Under the pieces are notes generated by a model. It had not been told where the DNA came from, ran no database searches, and worked only from the letters and a program-made list of their open reading frames with translations. DNA of 64,000 nucleotides, from contig JAWOEX010000013.1 of the NCBI GenBank assembly GCA_046482545.1, positions 1 to 64,000 on the forward strand. The letters run 5' to 3'. The first letter of the stretch is position 1. Each line of letters starts with the position of its first letter. Below, in pieces: positions 4,198 through 63,291 of this stretch. This DNA is from Candidatus Thorarchaeota archaeon (GTDB taxonomy: Archaea > Asgardarchaeota > Thorarchaeia > Thorarchaeales > Thorarchaeaceae). The translations under genes were made by a program, and so were the position numbers.

Positions 4198-6213
4198 CTA
4201 GGTCGCAGGCTTTTCAAGGCGTTTCGCATTGATGGCAACAATCACGGTGCTGAGGCTCATCACAATTGCTCCAAAGGCGGGTCCAGGGAGGATACCAAAG
4301 CCTGCAAGTATGCCTGCAGCCAATGGAATTGCCACGGCATTATATCCTGTTGCCCAAGCGAGATTCTGAATCATTTTGGAATAGGTTCGCTTAGAAAGGC
4401 CAAGAATATCCACCACATCTCGCGGATCATTCTTCACGAGAACTATATCTGCAGTCTCCACTGCGACATCAGTGCCTGCACCAATAGCAATTCCCACATC
4501 AGCCTGAGCAAGTGCAGGAGCATCGTTGACCCCATCCCCGACCATAGCAACCGAGCCATATTCCTCTTGGGCTTGTTTGACTCTTTTTGCTTTCTCATCT
4601 GGAAGAACTTCAGCGTAGAAATCGTCAAGGCCAAGCTCGCTGGCCACCCACTCCGCGACGTACCTGTTATCTCCTGTCAGCATAAGGCATTTGATTCCTT
4701 TAGATTTCAAACTGTCAATAGCTTCCCGTGATTCATCTCTGATTTTGTCAGCCAAGGCCAATGCTCCGATGGGCTCCTCATCTTTGACAACGTAGACTAC
4801 CGTTTTGCCCTGCTGCTCTACAGCTTTGATTTCCTCATTTTCGAAGCCCCCGGTCAGTTCTTTAAGGTACTCAGGGCTTATGATCTGAAGATTTTGACCT
4901 TTTACCACTCCTGCCACGCCTTTTCCTGGAATTGCCTCGAAATCATCAACATCAAATAGCGGGAGATTCCGTTCCTTCGCACTGTTCACAATGCCGCGGG
5001 CCAAGAGATGCTCCGAATGGTTTTCTATTGATGCCGCGCGTTGAAGGATTTCTTCTCTATCCATGCTGCCAATTGAGAGAATGTCTGTGACTCCGAAAGA
5101 TCCGACAGTTAGCGTGCCAGTTTTATCGAATATGACCGCTTGCACATTTCTGGCACGTTCAAAGGATTGCCTATCTCGAATCAGAAGACCAGAACGAGCA
5201 GCCAGCGAGGTTGATACGGCAACAACAAGGGGGATAGCAAGACCTAGGGCGTGGGGGCAAGTTATCACCATCACTGTAGCTGCTCTCTCAATGGCAAACC
5301 CAAAGTCTGCTCCCAGAAATGACCACGATGCGAGTGTGATTGTCCCAACCGACAGTGAGATTATAGTGAGCCAGAATGCCGCTCGATTTGCTAGGTCCTG
5401 CGTCTTGGACTTGCTCTCCTGTGCTTCACGAACCATGTCCACAACTTGGTTTAGGTAGGTGTCTTTGCCCGTCTTCTCCACTTCTATCCGTAGTGACCCT
5501 TCTTGGTTGATTGAACCACCAATAACCTCATCGTTCTTGGATTTAGAAACTGGTTTCGATTCACCTGTTAACATGGCCTGATTGACGGTTGATGCGCCTT
5601 CAATTATTACACCGTCAACTGGAATTTTCTCACCTGGGCGGACAAGGACTATATCTCTTGGCTTCAAATCCTCAACATTCACATCTTCGATTGAACCATT
5701 TTTCACACGGTGTGCGTCAGATGGGAGCACTTTCACAAGCTCCTCCAATGCTCGGGAAGCGCCCAGAACTGATCGCATCTCAATCCAGTGACCAAGCAGC
5801 ATGATATCGATTAGTGTAACAAGCTCCCAGAAGAACAGCGAACCCTGAAGCCCAAAAACCACTGCAGAACTATAGCCAAATGCGACAGTAATTGCAACGG
5901 AGATAAGCGTCATCATCCCGGGTTGACCATCTCGTATCTCGCCTACAAACCCCTTGAGAAACGGGTATCCTCCCCAGAAGTAAACCACTGTTGAAATACC
6001 AAAGAGAACATACAGGGATCCTGGAAACTGGAACTCGATTCCGATAAACCCTTGGACCGCGGGGGATAATGCCAGAATTGGGACGGTTGCCAGAAGTGAG
6101 CCTAGGAACCGCCTCTTGAAATCATGCATCATGTTTCGATGATGATTCTCTTGGTCGTGTTGGCCTTCTTCATTTGGATGATTACGCGAAGCATCTTCAG
6201 AGTGCGAAGCCAT
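4198..6213 (-). CDS. copB: Copper-translocating P1B-type ATPase (CopB/P1B-3 type)
   Basis: His-rich N-terminus, TGES, CPHAL, DKTGT, GDGVNDAP, YN and MSLST motifs. Confidence 0.9.
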   Translation of the reverse strand: MASHSEDASRNHPNEEGQHDQENHHRNMMHDFKRRFLGSLLATVPILALSPAVQGFIGIEFQFPGSLYVLFGISTVVYFWGGYPFLKGFVGEIRDGQPGMMTLISVAITVAFGYSSAVVFGLQGSLFFWELVTLIDIMLLGHWIEMRSVLGASRALEELVKVLPSDAHRVKNGSIEDVNVEDLKPRDIVLVRPGEKIPVDGVIIEGASTVNQAMLTGESKPVSKSKNDEVIGGSINQEGSLRIEVEKTGKDTYLNQVVDMVREAQESKSKTQDLANRAAFWLTIISLSVGTITLASWSFLGADFGFAIERAATVMVITCPHALGLAIPLVVAVSTSLAARSGLLIRDRQSFERARNVQAVIFDKTGTLTVGSFGVTDILSIGSMDREEILQRAASIENHSEHLLARGIVNSAKERNLPLFDVDDFEAIPGKGVAGVVKGQNLQIISPEYLKELTGGFENEEIKAVEQQGKTVVYVVKDEEPIGALALADKIRDESREAIDSLKSKGIKCLMLTGDNRYVAEWVASELGLDDFYAEVLPDEKAKRVKQAQEEYGSVAMVGDGVNDAPALAQADVGIAIGAGTDVAVETADIVLVKNDPRDVVDILGLSKRTYSKMIQNLAWATGYNAVAIPLAAGILAGFGILPGPAFGAIVMSLSTVIVAINAKRLEKPAT

Positions 6214-8159: not shown

Positions 8160-8947
8160 CTTCGTATCACCACTCCGTTTTCACACAAGTATTTCTTAAT
8201 GACCGGAATCGGATAAGAACTGAAGTGAAAGACCGATGCCGCCAGAGCAGCATCTGCAACACCTTCTTGGAGGACAGATAGAAAATGAGCGGGTTCACCT
8301 GCTCCGCCACTTGCAATAACAGGGATTCTTACTGAATGTGCGATTGCTTCAGTTAGTTCTACATCATATCCGGTCTTTGTTCCGTCTCTGTCCATTGAGG
8401 TGAGGAGAATCTCTCCAGCACCCAACTGTTCGACTTTCTTCGCCCAATCAATACTGTCAATTCCAGTTGCTTTTCTTCCACCGTGAATGTACACCTGAGC
8501 TGCTGGCGAATGTTCCTTTTCCATACCCTCATTGGCTGGTGAGAGCCGCTTAACATCAATTGCGACCACAATGCATTGTGAGCCAAAAACGTTCACAGCT
8601 TCAGCAATAAGATTCGGATTTTCCACGGCGGCGGTATTGAGGGTGACTTTGTCGGCTCCCTTCTTGAGAACCGATCTGATATCTTGAAGGTTTCTTAAAC
8701 CTCCACCTACTGTGAATGGGATATCGAGTTTGGATGCAATTGCAGCAACAGTGTCACCAAGAATTTCCCTGGATTCCACTGATGCTGTTATGTCTAAGAA
8801 TACTAGCTCATCCGCCCCATTATCCCTATATCTGATAGCAAGCTCCACCGGGTCTCCAGCATCCCTCAAATCAACGAAATTGATTCCTTTCACGACCCGC
8901 CCATGATTCACATCTAGGCAGGGGATTATCCTCTTTGCAAGAGTCAT
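8156..8947 (-). CDS. hisF: Imidazole glycerol phosphate synthase cyclase subunit
   Basis: [35 protein letters not shown] motifs. Confidence 0.97.
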
Positions 8948-9672
8948 TGCTGCTCCTCCAGTGCATCTATTGCTTCTTTAAGTGAGAACCGCCTTTCATA
9001 CAATGCTTTTCCCACAACTACGCCTCTTACCCCTATATGCGAAAGCTCTGCAATGTCCTTCAAAGAAGATACACCACCAGCGGCCATGATATTGAGGTCT
9101 TTTCGTGAACACATCGTAGTAAGCTTTGCAATATCTGGCCCCTCAAGAGTACCATCTCTGTCTATCGCAGTAAGTAGAAACCACTTGAAACCAATTTCTG
9201 AAAGATGACTGATACCTTCATAGACAGATGTTTCAGTTTCTGTTGACCACCCATCAATACAAACACGATTTTGTCGATAGTCGAGAGCAACTACGATGCT
9301 TTCCGGACCATACTCTCTCAGTAAACTAATTGCATTCTGCATATTTCTGATTATCATGGAACCCAGAATAGCACGGCACCGATCGTTCCGTAGTAATTTC
9401 GTTGCAATAGTGGGCGATCTTAGTCCTCCCCCAATTTGGAATTTGCAGTCGACCTTATTGATGATTTCTTGAATTCTCTCACGGTTGTTTCCATGCCCTT
9501 TCGCCCCGTCTAGGTCGATTATGTGTATCGTCTTTGCACCACTATCCGCCCATAAAGACGCTATTTCTAGAGGAGTTCCCCAGTCAGAGTAACTGCACTG
9601 TTTCTTGGAATCGCCCTTGCGTAGTCTTACAACCTTCCCGCCCATCAAATCAATTGCTGGAATGATTTCCAT
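8944..9672 (-). CDS. hisA: ProFAR isomerase
   Basis: [37 protein letters not shown]. Start moved to ATG 9672. Confidence 0.95.
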
Positions 9673-57336: not shown

Positions 57337-58731
57337 TTGAAACGCCCGATTCCCGTACATGTGGGACTTATAGGCCACATAGATCATGGCAAGACAGAGC
57401 TGGCGAAACGTCTCAGCGAGAAGGCATTCACGGCCGGGCATGACAAACACCCCCAGTCAAAAGAGAGAGGTATCACGATTGATTTGGGTTTCAGTATGTT
57501 CTCCTCAGACCAATACCTCGTGACCCTTGTGGATGCTCCAGGTCATGCTGATTTGATTCAGAGTGTGGTAGCTGGTGCCAGTATCATGGATGCCGCTATT
57601 CTTACGGTGGCAGCTGATGAGGGCCCTCAGATTCAGACCGTTGAACACATAACGGTTCTCAAGGCGATGGGTATAGAGAAACTGCTCGTTGCTATCACCA
57701 AGGTTGACCTTACTGAGGGCGAAAGACTGAATCTAGTCCTGCAGCGGACCAAAGGTATGGTTGAGAGATTAAAGTTCGATATGGTAGACTACGTATCTGT
57801 ATCTGCTCGGACAGGTTTTGGAATTGAAAAACTACGGGGGAAACTATTGGCTTTCCTCGCTCCGCCTGACCGTCAGGAAGATGGCCCCCTTCGCATACCT
57901 GTAGACCACGCATTCCCTGTTACAGGACACGGGACCGTATTGACCGGTACCATTCTGAGGGGATCACTTTCCATAGGTGATACTGTGCAACTGGTGCCAG
58001 GGGGAGACCAAGGAAAAGTGCGTACGATTCAAACCTTTGGACAGGAACGGGATTCAGCAAGTGCGGGCGACCGAGTAGGTGTCAATATTCCTGCTCTTGA
58101 CCATGAGAACATTCAACGTGGGAACTACTTATGTACTCCCAATAGCTTGGAGACTTCGAACTCATTTCTGACTACGGTCGAGATTAATCCTCAGTACAAA
58201 GGTCGTATTACCTCAAGGATGATTCTGAATGCAACAATCGGGATGTCCAGCGTAACAGCCGAAATTATCCCTTTCCGAAAGGAGGGAGAACATAGAATTC
58301 CAATCGAAGAACCTGAGAAGCGCATATTCGAAGCTGTACTTCTCCTGAAACAGGATGTGCCTGCGGAGGTAGGCAATCGTGTTCTACTCATGCGGACCGA
58401 TATGCCTGTAACAAGCATGCGGATAGTAGGCTGTGGAAATATTGAGAGCCTGTCTACAACGGTAATCCTAGACCGAAAGAAAACAAGAAGCGGAAAAATC
58501 AGCAGAATACGAGAAGATGATGTGCTGGTGGAAGGTTTAGCTACGAACAAGCAGCAAGCAAGGATTCTGAAGGGGCGCATCATCCAAGCTGACAACGGAG
58601 CAAGAGGTGAGCTTGTGGACTCCTTTGGAACTCGTGGTGTACTGGTTGCCAGATTCAATCAAGAAATCGAACTCGGAGAGAAAGTCGTTTTGGAGGACTA
58701 CATTGAGGAGGAATATCATTTTGGCAGATGA
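57337..58731 (+). CDS. selB: Selenocysteine-specific elongation factor
   Basis: GHIDHGKT, RGITIDLGFS, DAPGH, DHAF...GHGTV.TGT; C-terminal FGTRG domain. Confidence 0.93.
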   Translation: MKRPIPVHVGLIGHIDHGKTELAKRLSEKAFTAGHDKHPQSKERGITIDLGFSMFSSDQYLVTLVDAPGHADLIQSVVAGASIMDAAILTVAADEGPQIQTVEHITVLKAMGIEKLLVAITKVDLTEGERLNLVLQRTKGMVERLKFDMVDYVSVSARTGFGIEKLRGKLLAFLAPPDRQEDGPLRIPVDHAFPVTGHGTVLTGTILRGSLSIGDTVQLVPGGDQGKVRTIQTFGQERDSASAGDRVGVNIPALDHENIQRGNYLCTPNSLETSNSFLTTVEINPQYKGRITSRMILNATIGMSSVTAEIIPFRKEGEHRIPIEEPEKRIFEAVLLLKQDVPAEVGNRVLLMRTDMPVTSMRIVGCGNIESLSTTVILDRKKTRSGKISRIREDDVLVEGLATNKQQARILKGRIIQADNGARGELVDSFGTRGVLVARFNQEIELGEKVVLEDYIEEEYHFGR

Positions 58732-60052
58732 GCCCATTGACAAATTTGAAGAGCTTATACCTGAGAGCATGAGAGCACGGGGACGCATTACAGTCGATGC
58801 ATTACTTTCGCCTGTTCGTGATGTAATAAATCGCAGAGGATTTCCGAAAGAACCGCTCTCTGACGAACAGGTTGAGTTATTATTACATCTCCTTTCCTCC
58901 ATGGATACGGACAAGGACCCGGAGGCAGCCAGAGTGGGGGAACGGGAGGGGCGAACCGCAAGTCCGTTGATAGAACGGTTAGCGGCAGGTTTCAACCATG
59001 GAATTGGTCGCAGTGGTCATCTGACAGATCCTCAACCAAAGGCTCCAGGAGCTTCCACAATGCAGCGAATAACCAATTCTGTGGCCCTAGACGCTATCCG
59101 CAAGCTGGGTCTACCCAACGTTCGTGCCGGCTTAGTTACGCCTCTTTCGACCGGCATGACATTGGCATTGGTATTTGGAGCGCTGCGAAGGGAAGAAGGG
59201 GTACGAATACTCATCTATCCCCGAATCGACCATACATCACCTGACCGCGCAATCCAGTTTGCCGGACTGACGAAGATTCCAATATCTACTATTCTGGATG
59301 GAGATGCGGTTCTTCCGGATATGAACGAGTTCGAGAAACAGTTGCACGATGTAGAAGATGCCGCTGTTTTGGCAACAACTACCTTCTTTCCCCCACGTGA
59401 ATCAGATCCCGTCAAACCAATAGCAAAGCTTTGCCAAGAAGAGCAGGTTCCATTGGTCATTAACAATGCTTACGGCGTTCAATCTGAACGCATTATGGGT
59501 GAGATACGTTCTGCAATTGATGCTGGGAGGGTGGATGCCGTTGTACAGAGCAGCGATAAGAATTTCTTGGCACCAGTTGGCGGTTCAATTCTGGTATCCC
59601 CTCGAGATGATATGATTGAACAAGCTGCCGAGACTTACGCCGGACGAGCAACAGCCGCACCTGTCGTACAGACATTAGCTGCGCTACTAGTTCTCGGAGT
59701 CAATGGATATACTGAGCTACGTCAGGCACAGGTACAGAATCTTGATTTCCTAGAGGACGAGATGGCTACCATAGCAGATTCTGTTGATGAACGTCTGCTA
59801 TCGGTTTGGAATCCTGTTGCTTGTGCAATGACCCTAGACGGGTTTGATTCAAAAGAGATTGGAGGTCACCTCTATAACAGAAGAGTCACCGGCCCGCGAG
59901 CTGTTCCTAAGAGCGGGAAGGGCTCGTCAATAAATGATTACCCACATAGCTACTTGGTGATGAATGCAGCAATCGGGGCGAGCCGTAGAGACGTTGAGCA
60001 AGCCACCAGCAGACTATATAAGGAATTAACCGAATGGTTAAAGAAGCGTTGA
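58721..60052 (+). CDS. spcS: O-phosphoseryl-tRNA(Sec) selenium transferase SepSecS
   Basis: VGEREGR, HGIGRSG.L..PQPKA.G, NNAYG, SSDKNF..PVGG. Confidence 0.95.
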   Translation: MADEPIDKFEELIPESMRARGRITVDALLSPVRDVINRRGFPKEPLSDEQVELLLHLLSSMDTDKDPEAARVGEREGRTASPLIERLAAGFNHGIGRSGHLTDPQPKAPGASTMQRITNSVALDAIRKLGLPNVRAGLVTPLSTGMTLALVFGALRREEGVRILIYPRIDHTSPDRAIQFAGLTKIPISTILDGDAVLPDMNEFEKQLHDVEDAAVLATTTFFPPRESDPVKPIAKLCQEEQVPLVINNAYGVQSERIMGEIRSAIDAGRVDAVVQSSDKNFLAPVGGSILVSPRDDMIEQAAETYAGRATAAPVVQTLAALLVLGVNGYTELRQAQVQNLDFLEDEMATIADSVDERLLSVWNPVACAMTLDGFDSKEIGGHLYNRRVTGPRAVPKSGKGSSINDYPHSYLVMNAAIGASRRDVEQATSRLYKELTEWLKKR

Positions 60053-60818: not shown

Positions 60819-60909
60819 GGCCTCCTCTAGGGTTGGTGGTCCGACCCCATGGGCTTCAAACCCATGATGGCACAAGCCATAAGTGTTCGATTCACTGAGG
60901 GGGCCGCCA
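60819..60909 (+). tRNA. selC: tRNA-Sec (UCA), 9/4 fold
   Basis: 9-bp acceptor stem GGCCTCCTC/GAGGGGGCC plus GCCA, 7-bp D stem, 6-bp anticodon stem with loop CTTCAAA, long variable arm, 4-bp T stem. Confidence 0.95.
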
Positions 60910-60946: not shown

Positions 60947-62215
60947 ATGAGATTTGAAGGAAACAAAACCCACCGCGGCAGCTATTCCCCTTTTGATAGA
61001 CTGGCAGAGAGGTATGATGACTGGTTTGAAGACGATGGACGCTTAATCTTCTCTACTGAAGTGAAGGCCTTCTACACCCTGCTTCCAATGTTGCCTGAAC
61101 CATGGCTCGAAATAGGCGTTGGCAGTGGACGTTTCGCTAAGGCATTAGGAATTAGACTCGGTATTGATCCTTCCGGAAAATTGCTGGAAATGGCGAAACA
61201 AAGAGGAATAGATGTCATACTTGCGCGGGGCGAGGATGGGGTATTCAGGAATGAAACTTTAGGTACAGTGTTTATGATTGTTACTATCTGTTTTCTAGAT
61301 AACCTGTTTCTTACAGTTGTAGCAACTGCATGAAACTTCTGTGTTCCACCCCTCCCCTGCCAGCGTCGCCGCTCCCAAGGCTACCCAGTGGCTCCTTGAG
61401 TCAGCAGGGGCTTTGTCCGCGTTCACCGGAATAGGATTCCTCCCGCGGTCCTGGCTTCTTTCTCCTGTCGTTGTCCCGGGTCATCACTCCGGCGACAGCG
61501 AGGTCTTCCACAGTCTTTGCCACGGCGTGGTCATGATCACCCACCTCAGCTTTGTCACCGCCGCTGAGGAGGTCCATTACGGACAAGGTGAACAGCCGCG
61601 GACTCTCCGGAACCTGATGGGTTTCCTTTGGTGGAGAGTGAGGACTTCTGCTTAGTGGAACGAGTCCACCTCACAGCCTTCGGGGCTGAGCGCTTCTCCC
61701 GTTGGGGAGTGGCTCACCGCCCTAGTCCTACTAGACCGGACTCTCGTACCAGGCCTAATAAACTCCCCTCCAAGGCTACAATAGTGCTTGCAGGAAATGT
61801 TACAGTTATTTTACACTTTTCCACTCGCATTTTTTTAGGATTTTGTAAGATTTCTATCCCTCTAGACTCCCCTATGAAGGTTCTACAGGAGGCTAATCGC
61901 ATCCTCTCCCCAGGAGGTAGGCTTGTCCTTGGGCTGGTCTTACGAGAAAGCCCATGGGGCAAATACTATCGAGAAAAGAAGGCGGATGGACACCCTTTCT
62001 ATGATTATGCCACCTTTTCCACTATCAATGATATCACAACTTTGCTTCAAGAAACGGGGTTTATTATTGAGAAGACTGTATCAACACTTTTCCAAAAGCC
62101 AGGGAATGTCAAGCATACGGAAGAGCCCCGCGAAGGGTATTCACCAAAGGCGGGTTTCACCGTTCTCGTTGCAGCAAAGCGGGATAATGATGCTCCTGAC
62201 GGGAAAGAAGAATAA
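60947..62215 (+). pseudogene. Class I SAM-dependent methyltransferase interrupted by a 567 bp insertion
   Basis: 5' half has LEIGVGSGRF and GIDPS; 3' half has EANRILSPGG. Removing 61300-61866 restores an in-frame 233 aa ORF (..VTICFLD/SPMKVLQE..). Confidence 0.88.
61300..61860 (-). mobile_element. Non-autonomous, non-coding, RNA-structured insertion element without TIRs
   Basis: Bounded by TCTAGA direct repeats (61294-61299 and 61861-61866), interrupts a gene, has a subterminal hairpin at one end and 10-bp phased repeats at the other. Strand is inferred. Confidence 0.8.
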
Positions 62216-62517: not shown

Positions 62518-63291
62518 TTACCCGTTTATTTTGCCGGAGAGAAGCTTTTCCAACTCCGTTCTCAAGAGGGTCCGGGTGGCTTCCAAGCTCCAGTCTTCAG
62601 TCAAGGCTTGCTGTAATATTCTTCTTCTCGTTATGTGAATACGCTCATCAAATCCAAGATCAGGATTGTTTTCTAAGAACTCAGAAACTACTCTCCTTGT
62701 TGTCACATCAAGTTGGTCGTTGTTTTCATCTGTGACATGTCGGGGTTCTTTCTCAACTTCCAAGTCCTCCAGTTTCCTCAGAATTTCAATGGCCCCTTCC
62801 GAAGCAGCAGTGCTGCTTAAATCAATGGTTACCAACGGTTCATCCCATGCGTATTTCTTCCCTGGGAGGTCCAACCTTTCATCAATTCGCCGGATGACAT
62901 GTTCTGGGATTACGAACTCCCGTGCCCTGTTCCATTTCAAGGCTGTTTCAAGAGGAGTGCTTACAAAAACAGATTCATAGATACAATCGTGCTTGAGGGC
63001 GATATCGCGGATCTCGTGTCTCATGCTTGCATAGTAGTTTGTATCATCGTGCACAACTGACAGTTGCTTCTCAGCTATTGCATTGGCTTTTCTCAGTGCT
63101 TTCTTCCGCACCTCGTTTTCTTTGTTCGGCGTGAAATCTGCATAGAATACATCATCTCGCCAATCGTCTGTACTGATAATCTGTACATTTGATGGCAATG
63201 GATGATGGTGTTTGATTTGCTTGGCCAGGGTAGTCTTTCCAGAGGCGGGTATACCACAGAGTGCGATAAGAAATTGCTTCATGTTACCCAC
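62518..63291 (-). CDS. pstK: L-seryl-tRNA(Sec) kinase
   Basis: CGIPASGKTT, DDTNYYASMR, KYAWD; located in the Sec cluster. Confidence 0.88.
   Translation of the reverse strand: MGNMKQFLIALCGIPASGKTTLAKQIKHHHPLPSNVQIISTDDWRDDVFYADFTPNKENEVRKKALRKANAIAEKQLSVVHDDTNYYASMRHEIRDIALKHDCIYESVFVSTPLETALKWNRAREFVIPEHVIRRIDERLDLPGKKYAWDEPLVTIDLSSTAASEGAIEILRKLEDLEVEKEPRHVTDENNDQLDVTTRRVVSEFLENNPDLGFDERIHITRRRILQQALTEDWSLEATRTLLRTELEKLLSGKING

Follow-up and report, generated by a model that had tools for sequence, protein, structure and literature searches.

The closest described relatives of the element reported here are the aCas1-TnpB loci of Asgard archaea. The main text of Altae-Tran et al. (2023; PMC10691335), with reference to Makarova et al. 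(2020), presents two Asgard TnpB groups (Cas1H-Asgard-1/-2) linked to a Cas1 variant, aCas1, and suggests, from the repeats often seen on either side of these loci, that aCas1 is the transposase. Downstream of tnpB it notes a conserved T, a region that is hypervariable and a GTTCACTCA motif. So far, the proposal that Asgard Cas1 variants are transposases has been based solely on their gene neighbourhood and on flanking repeats. We analysed a stretch of 64,000 nucleotides (the window; positions 1 to 64,000 of contig JAWOEX010000013.1, assembly GCA_046482545.1) from a Candidatus Thorarchaeota archaeon, in which a protein-free element of 561 bp lies at 61300-61860. This element is almost certainly an internal-deletion derivative of an aCas1-TnpB element. 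Judged from sequence comparisons, it is very probably an element similar to a miniature inverted-repeat transposable element (MITE), mobilised in trans by a Cas1-like protein and with a true target duplication.

The elements studied here share with the published loci the Asgard host, a TnpB beside a divergent Cas1 variant, the GTTCACTCA motif downstream of tnpB and the flanking repeats. In the main text of PMC10691335, neither the ends nor a target consensus is defined, and the length of the duplication, the structure of the RNA and protein-free derivatives are not described; its supplement may hold some of these. The parent class has thus already been published computationally; the ends, the target duplication, the MITE and a promoter-matching mini-guide upstream of tnpB appear to be new here, and we found no earlier description of them in the main texts of the sources consulted.

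Insertion into a methyltransferase gene

The element is bracketed by two copies of TCTAGA (61294-61299 and 61861-61866) and splits a plus-strand gene for a class I S-adenosylmethionine-dependent methyltransferase (Methyltransf_11), of which the 5′ half (60947-61299) ends in the target hexamer and the 3′ half occupies 61867-62215. In silico excision of 567 bp produced a single frame of 233 aa that reads ICFLD-SPMKVLQEANR across the join. A genome of the same genus (G001) encodes an uninterrupted orthologue of 233 aa, which reads ICFLD-NPMKVL, is 74% identical and aligns without a gap across the site. Seven further orthologues are also continuous through the insertion site. An earlier note on this DNA, made from its letters alone, had described a precise insertion of 561 bp between TCTAGA copies whose removal with one repeat restores the frame, and all of this was exact; the empty allele that it proposed to look for in relatives was found, joined at the expected site. 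Its view that the insertion is recent is plausible, given the perfect duplication and the undecayed gene halves, although the closest assembled full-length sister copies are only 86% identical.

Both junctions were covered nearly letter for letter by DNA contigs from one public run, and the left junction was bridged by short contigs from two other studies. Since these DNA contigs span the junctions, the insertion is real and not an assembly artefact.

Copies, ends and target duplications

Searching the 3.05-Mb genome with BLAST and profiles revealed 82 ends of the type in which the omega-RNA terminates (omega ends) and 53 far ends. The complete end pairs comprise 32 elements of 531-581 bp and five that are internally shortened, besides a 1.8-kb copy and two 8.2-kb copies. 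The copies are 70-89% identical to the window element. Of 36 same-family genomes, 24-26 contain relatives; the 24 more distant genomes searched contain none.

A TCNNGA-like hexamer was found on both sides of 25 of the 36 complete pairs. The central NN is equal left and right in 21 of these 25 (shuffled mean 4.05, maximum 13 in 20,000), all six bases agree in 19, and nine different central dinucleotides are used. TCNNGA adjoins 34 of 74 omega ends, compared to a frequency of 0.0055 per bp genome-wide. When the element was removed together with 6 bp, long frames were reopened at 5 of 19 sites, whereas removal with 4, 5, 7 or 8 bp reopened only 0-1. Bases that deviate from the consensus are duplicated too, as in TCTGTA on both sides of the copy at C33. 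The outer T and A of the hexamer are almost invariant, and the A at the omega end is kept even where the remaining hexamer is lost. Because the outer T and A may therefore belong to the element, the duplication length is formally 4-6 bp when derived from the filled sites alone. Beyond the hexamer, the insertion sites of sister copies have nothing in common.

The termini are not inverted repeats, as the earlier note had stated; it had not listed the inverted 7-bp boxes that sit 9 and 10 bp inside the two ends and recur throughout the family. TCTTACA, a candidate integrase binding site, lies 9 bp inside the omega end (61309-61315, plus strand) and its inverse 9-10 bp inside the far end, with two further direct boxes, 11 bp apart, deeper in the far end. 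In the window copy, the AT-rich second end (61791-61860) is 77-80% identical to the parents' end beyond the giant gene; it contains the direct boxes at 61798-61804 and 61809-61815 and the inverted box TGTAAGA at 61844-61850, followed by a variable spacer of 10 bp up to the terminus. Seven omega ends (C10:30873, C30:8805, C20:117701, C10:14858, C9:326599 and two more) carry an extra TA between terminus and hexamer, and may form a subfamily whose end is 2 bp longer or have been joined imprecisely.

Long parent elements

The genome also contains the longer copies with open reading frames that the earlier note had suggested searching for. Two elements of 8.2 kb (C20:228517-236754, locus L022, and C28:133385-141693, locus L023) have the same two ends as the short copies and are flanked by perfect duplications of TCCAGA and TCCTGA, respectively; a third parent, from another assembly (L063), has TCAGGA at both ends. 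Each 8.2-kb parent encodes a TnpB of 544-559 aa and a divergently transcribed protein of 1,410 or 1,655 aa without a Pfam match. Among 23 loci from further genomes and metagenomes, 13 have this divergent gene pair, and several of the others are truncated by contig edges; it was also found in five of seven loci added later via protein look-up (one repeat locus aside). The hosts of the homologues are named Thorarchaeota, i.e. Asgard archaea.

Positions 61300-61729 of the window map to the 3′ end of the parents' tnpB and the downstream terminus (74-80% identity), and positions 61791-61853 map to the parents' far end (77-80%). The segment of about 60 bp between these two pieces was not found in the long copies. 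The earlier note had seen no TnpB remnant; however, the minus strand from 61728 to 61432 is a broken tnpB 3′ coding region (residues about 460-558; 50% identity, E 4e-17 by tblastn), decayed by stops and a frameshift and overlapping the RNA. The element thus retains the parent's two ends and the omega-RNA but has lost tnpB and the giant gene, and the family that the earlier note did not recognise can be named as deletion derivatives of Thorarchaeota aCas1-TnpB elements.

Two more divergent full-length aCas1-TnpB elements were noticed at G000 C23:124195-124302 and C28:874-8800, with giant open reading frames of about 1,500 and 1,960 aa. Their far ends gave no profile match, and the C23 copy abuts tRNA-Gly(TCC). 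In L065 (3876-5517) and L066 (3050-4222) a gene of the RecA/RadA family lies at or close to the end of the giant gene. At G000 C34:112500-114320, outside the window, the giant gene beside tnpB is replaced by a putative AbiE-type toxin-antitoxin pair and a nuclease-like open reading frame of 367 aa, as named by inspection of the sequence.

A giant protein with Cas1-like and Cas4-like domains

The giant proteins (1,400-1,960 aa) fall into 188 clusters that together make up a closed family. Residues 1-900 were modelled with AlphaFold (predicted local distance difference test, pLDDT, 72.9), and the model was compared with 48,161 solved chains. For residues 7-245, the nine best structural matches were all catalytic domains of Cas1 or casposases: the best match had a Z score of 13.1 with a root mean square deviation (rmsd) of 3.5 Å over 177 aligned residues, a repeat comparison gave Z 13.7, and casposase 6opm scored 10.6. 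Among the homologues E79 is conserved in 90/91, H174 in 95/95, D181 in 94/96, D184 in 92/96 and R187 in 96/96. Cas1 has four catalytic residues in an E...H...DxxD pattern (PMC9939771), which the nearly invariant residues of the giant protein fit.

Residues 300-575, folded alone (pLDDT 89.5), matched Cas4 best (Z 8.0 and 6.7; for the former, rmsd 3.2 with 115 aligned residues), followed by AddA, MGME1 and RecB. This nuclease domain contains invariant H, E, D, (D/E)xK and QxxxY motifs. Foldseek alone had missed both the nuclease domain and the rank of the Cas1 domain. Residues 598-880 adopt a RecA/KaiC fold in which the Walker A lysine is not conserved, and the C-terminal 500 aa had no match in Pfam or the protein atlas. 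The models predict that the giant protein is a Cas1-family integrase fused to a Cas4-like nuclease and a decayed RecA fold. Both 8.2-kb parents retain the Cas1-type and Cas4-type active-site residues.

TnpB, the omega-RNA and its predicted guide

The aspartates of RuvC-I and RuvC-III are kept in TnpB. The RuvC-II glutamate is changed to glycine in all but one of 112 scored homologues, and all 117 homologues compared carry an alternative glutamate ahead of the zinc finger. A reading as a nuclease-dead TnpB (TldR/Cas12k-like) was dropped in view of this invariant glutamate together with the two retained aspartates. In the main text of Altae-Tran et al. (2023; PMC10691335), TnpBs with a rearranged RuvC-II centre (RIIr type) are predicted to be active. 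From its residues, the parent TnpB is probably an active nuclease despite the rearrangement.

The omega-RNA scaffold of about 430 nt is located on the minus strand at 61300-61729, antisense to the host methyltransferase gene, and is 74-80% identical to the 3′ end of the parents' tnpB and its 3′ flank. The minus strand of the element is more stable than shuffled sequences (z -3.64, 0/100), compared to z -2.21 for the plus strand. No Rfam family matches the element. RNAalifold on 60 homologues predicted 88 pairs, 44 of which show compensatory changes, with a covariation term of -11.6 kcal/mol, these counts coming from related sequences and not from independent events. The proposal in the earlier note of a non-autonomous element with a structured RNA of this length is supported; among its options the guide scaffold was right, as a TnpB omega-RNA, and no support was found for a ribozyme, a retro-template or a bridge RNA.

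The hairpins that the earlier note had named are all placed exactly, and two of its four named helices hold in the 60 homologues. CCCCTGC/GCAGGGG is paired in 97% and CCTCAGC/GCTGAGG in 92%, the latter with 94 doubly changed, compensated cells. TCCGC/GCGGA (79%) and GTTCACC/GGTGAAC (73%) do not hold; instead, the family pairs CCGCGGC with GCCGTGG (99%). Of the proposed box-C-like GTGATGA, only GTGAT is conserved, the last base being C in 27 and A in 22 of the 60. The terminal hairpin (61314-61328, minus strand) carries the GTTCACTCA loop in the parents and most relatives, and this loop is deleted in the subfamily of the window copy.

A TATA-like box, TTTATTAG (61755-61762, minus strand), is located within the 60-bp segment not found in the long parents and is a candidate promoter of the omega-RNA. 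Of 25 short copies, 21 have such a box 33 nt before the start of the omega-RNA. In the leader of the parents' tnpB, the distance from TATA box to start is 29-30 nt, so the spacing in the short copies suits a predicted promoter. A sigma-70 promoter scan does not apply to archaea.

In the 74 ends compared, conservation stops sharply at GAAAC-RGG-TTA, which is also the element terminus. The guide would therefore be host flank, starting with the hexamer. From TnpB biology we predict a guide of about 20 nt at 61280-61299 on the minus strand, just beyond the scaffold end GAAACAGGTTA and outside the element, the first 6 nt of which are the first copy of the target duplication. The hypervariable region described in the main text of PMC10691335 may be the flank that we call guide.

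Proposed mobilisation in trans and alternative explanations

We infer mobilisation in trans because short and long copies share both their ends and their duplications. Candidate enzymes with conserved Cas1-, Cas4- and RuvC-type residues are encoded in the same genome. Pfam models detected no resolvase or serine recombinase (PF00239), tyrosine integrase, IS110 transposase (PF02371) or reverse transcriptase in the genome, which is 99% complete. The giant protein from a full-length copy would bind the TCTTACA boxes at both ends, and its Cas4/RecB-type domain, or another step, would free or trim the element ends. The Cas1-type domain would then link both 3′ ends to TCNNGA in a staggered fashion, and repair of the gaps by the host would create the duplication, as happens with casposases on longer targets. 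A 6-bp duplication around an omega-RNA element would be explained in this way, because Cas1-family integrases duplicate their targets whereas Y1 and serine TnpA enzymes do not. The omega-RNA may have been retained partly because the element end lies inside it. Transcribed from the TATA-like box into the flank, it could also guide a TnpB supplied in trans against the empty site, a role in retention suggested by analogy with IS605-family TnpB. The choice of target looks protein-directed, through TCNNGA, rather than RNA-guided.

Several observations weigh against this reading. As with casposons (PMC6977970), it does not account for the excision step, and we found no published demonstration of an aCas1 integrating DNA. 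The Cas1 assignment combines a predicted helical fold and residue conservation; since helical bundles can by chance attain Z scores near the one obtained, the conservation carries weight here. Moreover, the alignment starts at Cas1 residue ~80-114, so that the usual N-terminal beta domain appears to be absent. In 11 of the 36 complete pairs and in several long copies (L021, L029, L043) the hexamers do not match, which could be explained by decay, recombination between copies or one-ended events. No strong transposon-associated motif (TAM) was seen beside the empty sites, only a weak bias for T two bases before and a pyrimidine three bases after the hexamer. RNA runs, available as unstranded contigs, do not establish expression: the element has surplus coverage in them, but to about the same extent as in DNA runs, so that copy number accounts for it. 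Among the RNA contigs listed, none has a joint that leaves out the element. Finally, the closest sisters tend to share a hexamer (p 0.02; tree p about 0.22), a weak hint of core inheritance.

This hint bears on an alternative that we regard as unlikely, in which the giant protein or an undetected recombinase inserts a circular form by conservative recombination and the element brings the hexamer along as its crossover core, so that insertion occurs only at matching hexamers. Nearest sisters often share TCTTGA or TCTGTA, and copies with the same core are slightly more alike (whole-length permutation p 0.02; pairwise tests p 0.02-0.12); the inverted boxes are also nearly symmetric around the would-be junction, resembling att sites. 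However, nine cores are in use, and the hexamer changes 16 times on the tree of copies, against 14-19 changes with shuffled labels. With so little tree signal, it behaves mostly like a target chosen anew. Cas1-family chemistry yields duplications, and no serine, tyrosine or IS110 recombinase was found in the genome with Pfam models.

Cross-mobilisation by resident DDE transposases (PF01609, about 305 aa) or by a lone IS200 TnpA seems very unlikely. The genome does encode four to five DDE transposases and a single Y1 TnpA, and within the terminal inverted repeat of the DDE element is CTGTAAAA, which resembles the TGTAA(G/A)A box. The DDE elements, however, have perfect terminal repeats of their own that start with GGCTC or GGTTC, flanking repeats of about 9 bp and the motif in the opposite orientation, and the ends of the short element are common to the aCas1 parents but not to DDE or IS200 elements. 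The single IS200 TnpA gene has neither tnpB nor element ends beside it, and Y1 enzymes make no target duplication.

We consider it equally improbable that TnpB with its omega-RNA, or a crRNA-like (CRISPR RNA-like) RNA, steers the Cas1-like integrase as in a Cas1-based CRISPR-associated transposon, with a short seed sufficing. The tight linkage of tnpB and the giant gene would fit such a mechanism, as would the fixed guides of 16-21 nt that match tRNA genes in some relatives and the crRNA-like cassette upstream of tnpB that is complementary to the omega 3′ loop. On the other hand, the guides of the 74 ends had no second genomic target above chance (best matches 15-18/20), and sister sites are alike only in the hexamer. 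With its alternative glutamate, TnpB looks like a nuclease and not like a dead, Cas12k-like subunit. Among 19 copies, no covariation was seen between internal segments and the insertion site (p 0.51). A genome-wide guide library aimed elsewhere was rejected, its off-site matches being those expected by chance, and the 19 copies gave no signal of an internal guide of the bridge or exon-binding site (EBS) type.

An element mobilised as RNA (an ORF-less group II intron, a HYER-like ribozyme or a retro-template) would account for a large covarying RNA without a protein, but it is largely refuted and its probability is close to nil, since no Rfam match, no reverse transcriptase in the genome and no EBS-like covariation were found, and since the RNA, which lies antisense to the host gene, corresponds to the 3′ end of tnpB in a DNA element whose two DNA ends are both kept.

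Leader cassettes upstream of tnpB and tRNA genes

In 21 distinct parents the tnpB leader contains a TATA box and, starting about 30 nt further on, a hairpin; the scaffold end is repeated after it, followed by 11-15 nt matching the element's own promoter, with which they covary across the 21 loci. These cassettes are located at L022:2845-2960 and L023:2815-2930 (both minus strand) and 5′ of tnpB in L028-L031, L035, L037, L038, L040, L043, L046, L047, L050 and L062-L066. The longest match of a leader to its own promoter has a mean of 11.6 nt, compared to 5.8 nt for the promoters of other loci (p at most 0.0005). The own promoter is best or tied in 17 of the 21 loci, and the two poorest-matching loci have lost the promoter. 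The cassette contains a GAGTGAACTC complementary to the 3′ loop of the omega-RNA; this loop is missing from the window copy. The CTTAA motif that precedes the promoter match did not recur at empty sites. At C34:112500-114320, the tnpB leader has lost the promoter matched by the mini-guide. From these sequences, the cassette looks like a crRNA-like autoregulatory guide that would repress its own promoter; alternatively, it may be a maintained tandem duplication of the promoter.

Some relatives carry fixed guides of 16-21 nt that match tRNA genes next to the element, and relatives inserted in or guided to tRNA genes include L040, L125, L035, L016, L031, L036, L064/L083 and L088. In two cases the guide matches a neighbouring tRNA-like gene where its T-arm is interrupted: the L042 guide (5070-5085) matches 16/16 nt across the uninterrupted junction (gene at 5155-5330), and 15 nt of the L030 guide (8793-8810) match up to the interruption (gene at 8856-9055). 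This suggests that these two guides would be aimed at intron-less tRNA alleles, the intron conferring immunity. In L040 (77-130, 201-278, 7662-7700), tRNA-Arg(GCG) is split at the anticodon and a divergent intact tRNA-Arg(GCG) lies inside the far end; L125 retains only 18 nt of the L040 guide. The guides of L035 (9453-9540, 11810-11830) and L016 resemble tRNA-Leu(TAG), from which the adjacent tRNA-Leu differs at 5/21 positions. A second scaffold-end and guide-like unit follows the first in L041 (11811-11910) and L066 (11818-11895), forming a mini-array. The second unit of L066 is the start of the host gene itself and may thus be a self-target.

It is conceivable, but doubtful, that the parent functions as a forerunner of type V CRISPR-Cas contained in a single element, with a Cas1-Cas4 fusion integrase, a TnpB effector, a long tracr-like (trans-activating crRNA-like) RNA and separate crRNA-like units, in which the RNA-guided complex steers or polices integration. 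One crRNA-like unit would then repress its own promoter and others would target tRNA genes. If this were true, the short elements would be mobile guide-scaffold cassettes that write a new guide with each insertion.

Genomic surroundings

A selenocysteine locus surrounds the insertion. Rfam identified tRNA-Sec at 60819-60905 (plus strand), and the locus also comprises SepSecS, a SelB-like GTPase and a KTI12/PSTK-like kinase, with spans at 58607-60052 (+), 57337-58731 (+) and 62518-63291 (-). An unrelated dispersed repeat family of about 140 bp (79-94% identity) was noticed beside a DDE element at C4; copies lie at C37:37711-37850, C22:139052-139192, C33:6673-6810 and C14:57614-57753, with about ten more.

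Comparison with known systems

About 30 protein-free copies at unrelated sites, several of them within genes and with a duplicated TCNNGA, provide genomic evidence of movement. The family supplies a minimal donor (561 bp or the ends alone), a target motif, an expected product and catalytic residues for biochemistry. For one TnpB clade it also yields a covariation-supported omega-RNA of 430 nt with a defined guide boundary. If the preferred reading, a derivative moved by the Cas1-like protein, is true, this would be a Cas1-based transposase outside casposons, without terminal repeats or a family B DNA polymerase (PolB). The combination of Cas4-like and Cas12-like parts in one mobile unit would bear on the origin of type V CRISPR systems.

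The leader cassette has a counterpart in Cas9 tracr-L, of which Workman et al. (2021, listed in PMC8730458) reportedly showed that it autoregulates CRISPR via a natural short-match guide. The parents' tnpB leader likewise combines a scaffold-like end with a short match to its own promoter. Here, in contrast, the setting is a transposon with TnpB, the cassette is not in the window copy and repression is predicted.

We class the window element as a non-autonomous aCas1-TnpB derivative because it has neither the PolB nor the terminal inverted repeats of casposons and lacks the defining traits of IS605, IS607 and IS110 elements. Aloposons were set aside on gene set and size. With casposons it shares, through its parent, a Cas1-fold integrase with four catalytic residues and predicted activity, target duplication, a Cas4-like companion nuclease and some relatives inserted in tRNA genes. 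It differs in its 6-bp rather than ~15-bp duplication, the absence of terminal inverted repeats, a fusion integrase of 1,400-1,960 aa without the Cas1 N-terminal beta domain, the many dispersed sites and the presence of TnpB with an omega-RNA. No PolB was found in the open reading frame lists and Pfam scans of two full-length parents or among the recurrent neighbours.

IS110/IS1111 elements differ in their transposase (PF02371), which has no match in the genome and is not encoded by the parents. With IS200/IS605 and IS607 elements, whose omega-RNAs include sotRNA (RF02656/7), the element has in common an omega-RNA that overlaps the tnpB 3′ end and reaches the element end, a predicted guide from the flank and non-autonomous derivatives that would be moved in trans. 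In contrast to both groups, the parent has no Y1 or serine TnpA and makes a target duplication, the RNA of about 430 nt has no Rfam match, and the TnpB of about 550 aa has a relocated RuvC-II glutamate. IS200/IS605 elements have a fixed 5′ motif of 4-5 nt and no duplication, whereas here a variable hexamer stands on both sides; IS607 uses a fixed GG crossover, compared to the variable core here, and PF00239 has no match in the genome. By analogy, the element would be casposon-like in its chemistry and IS605-like in its RNA.

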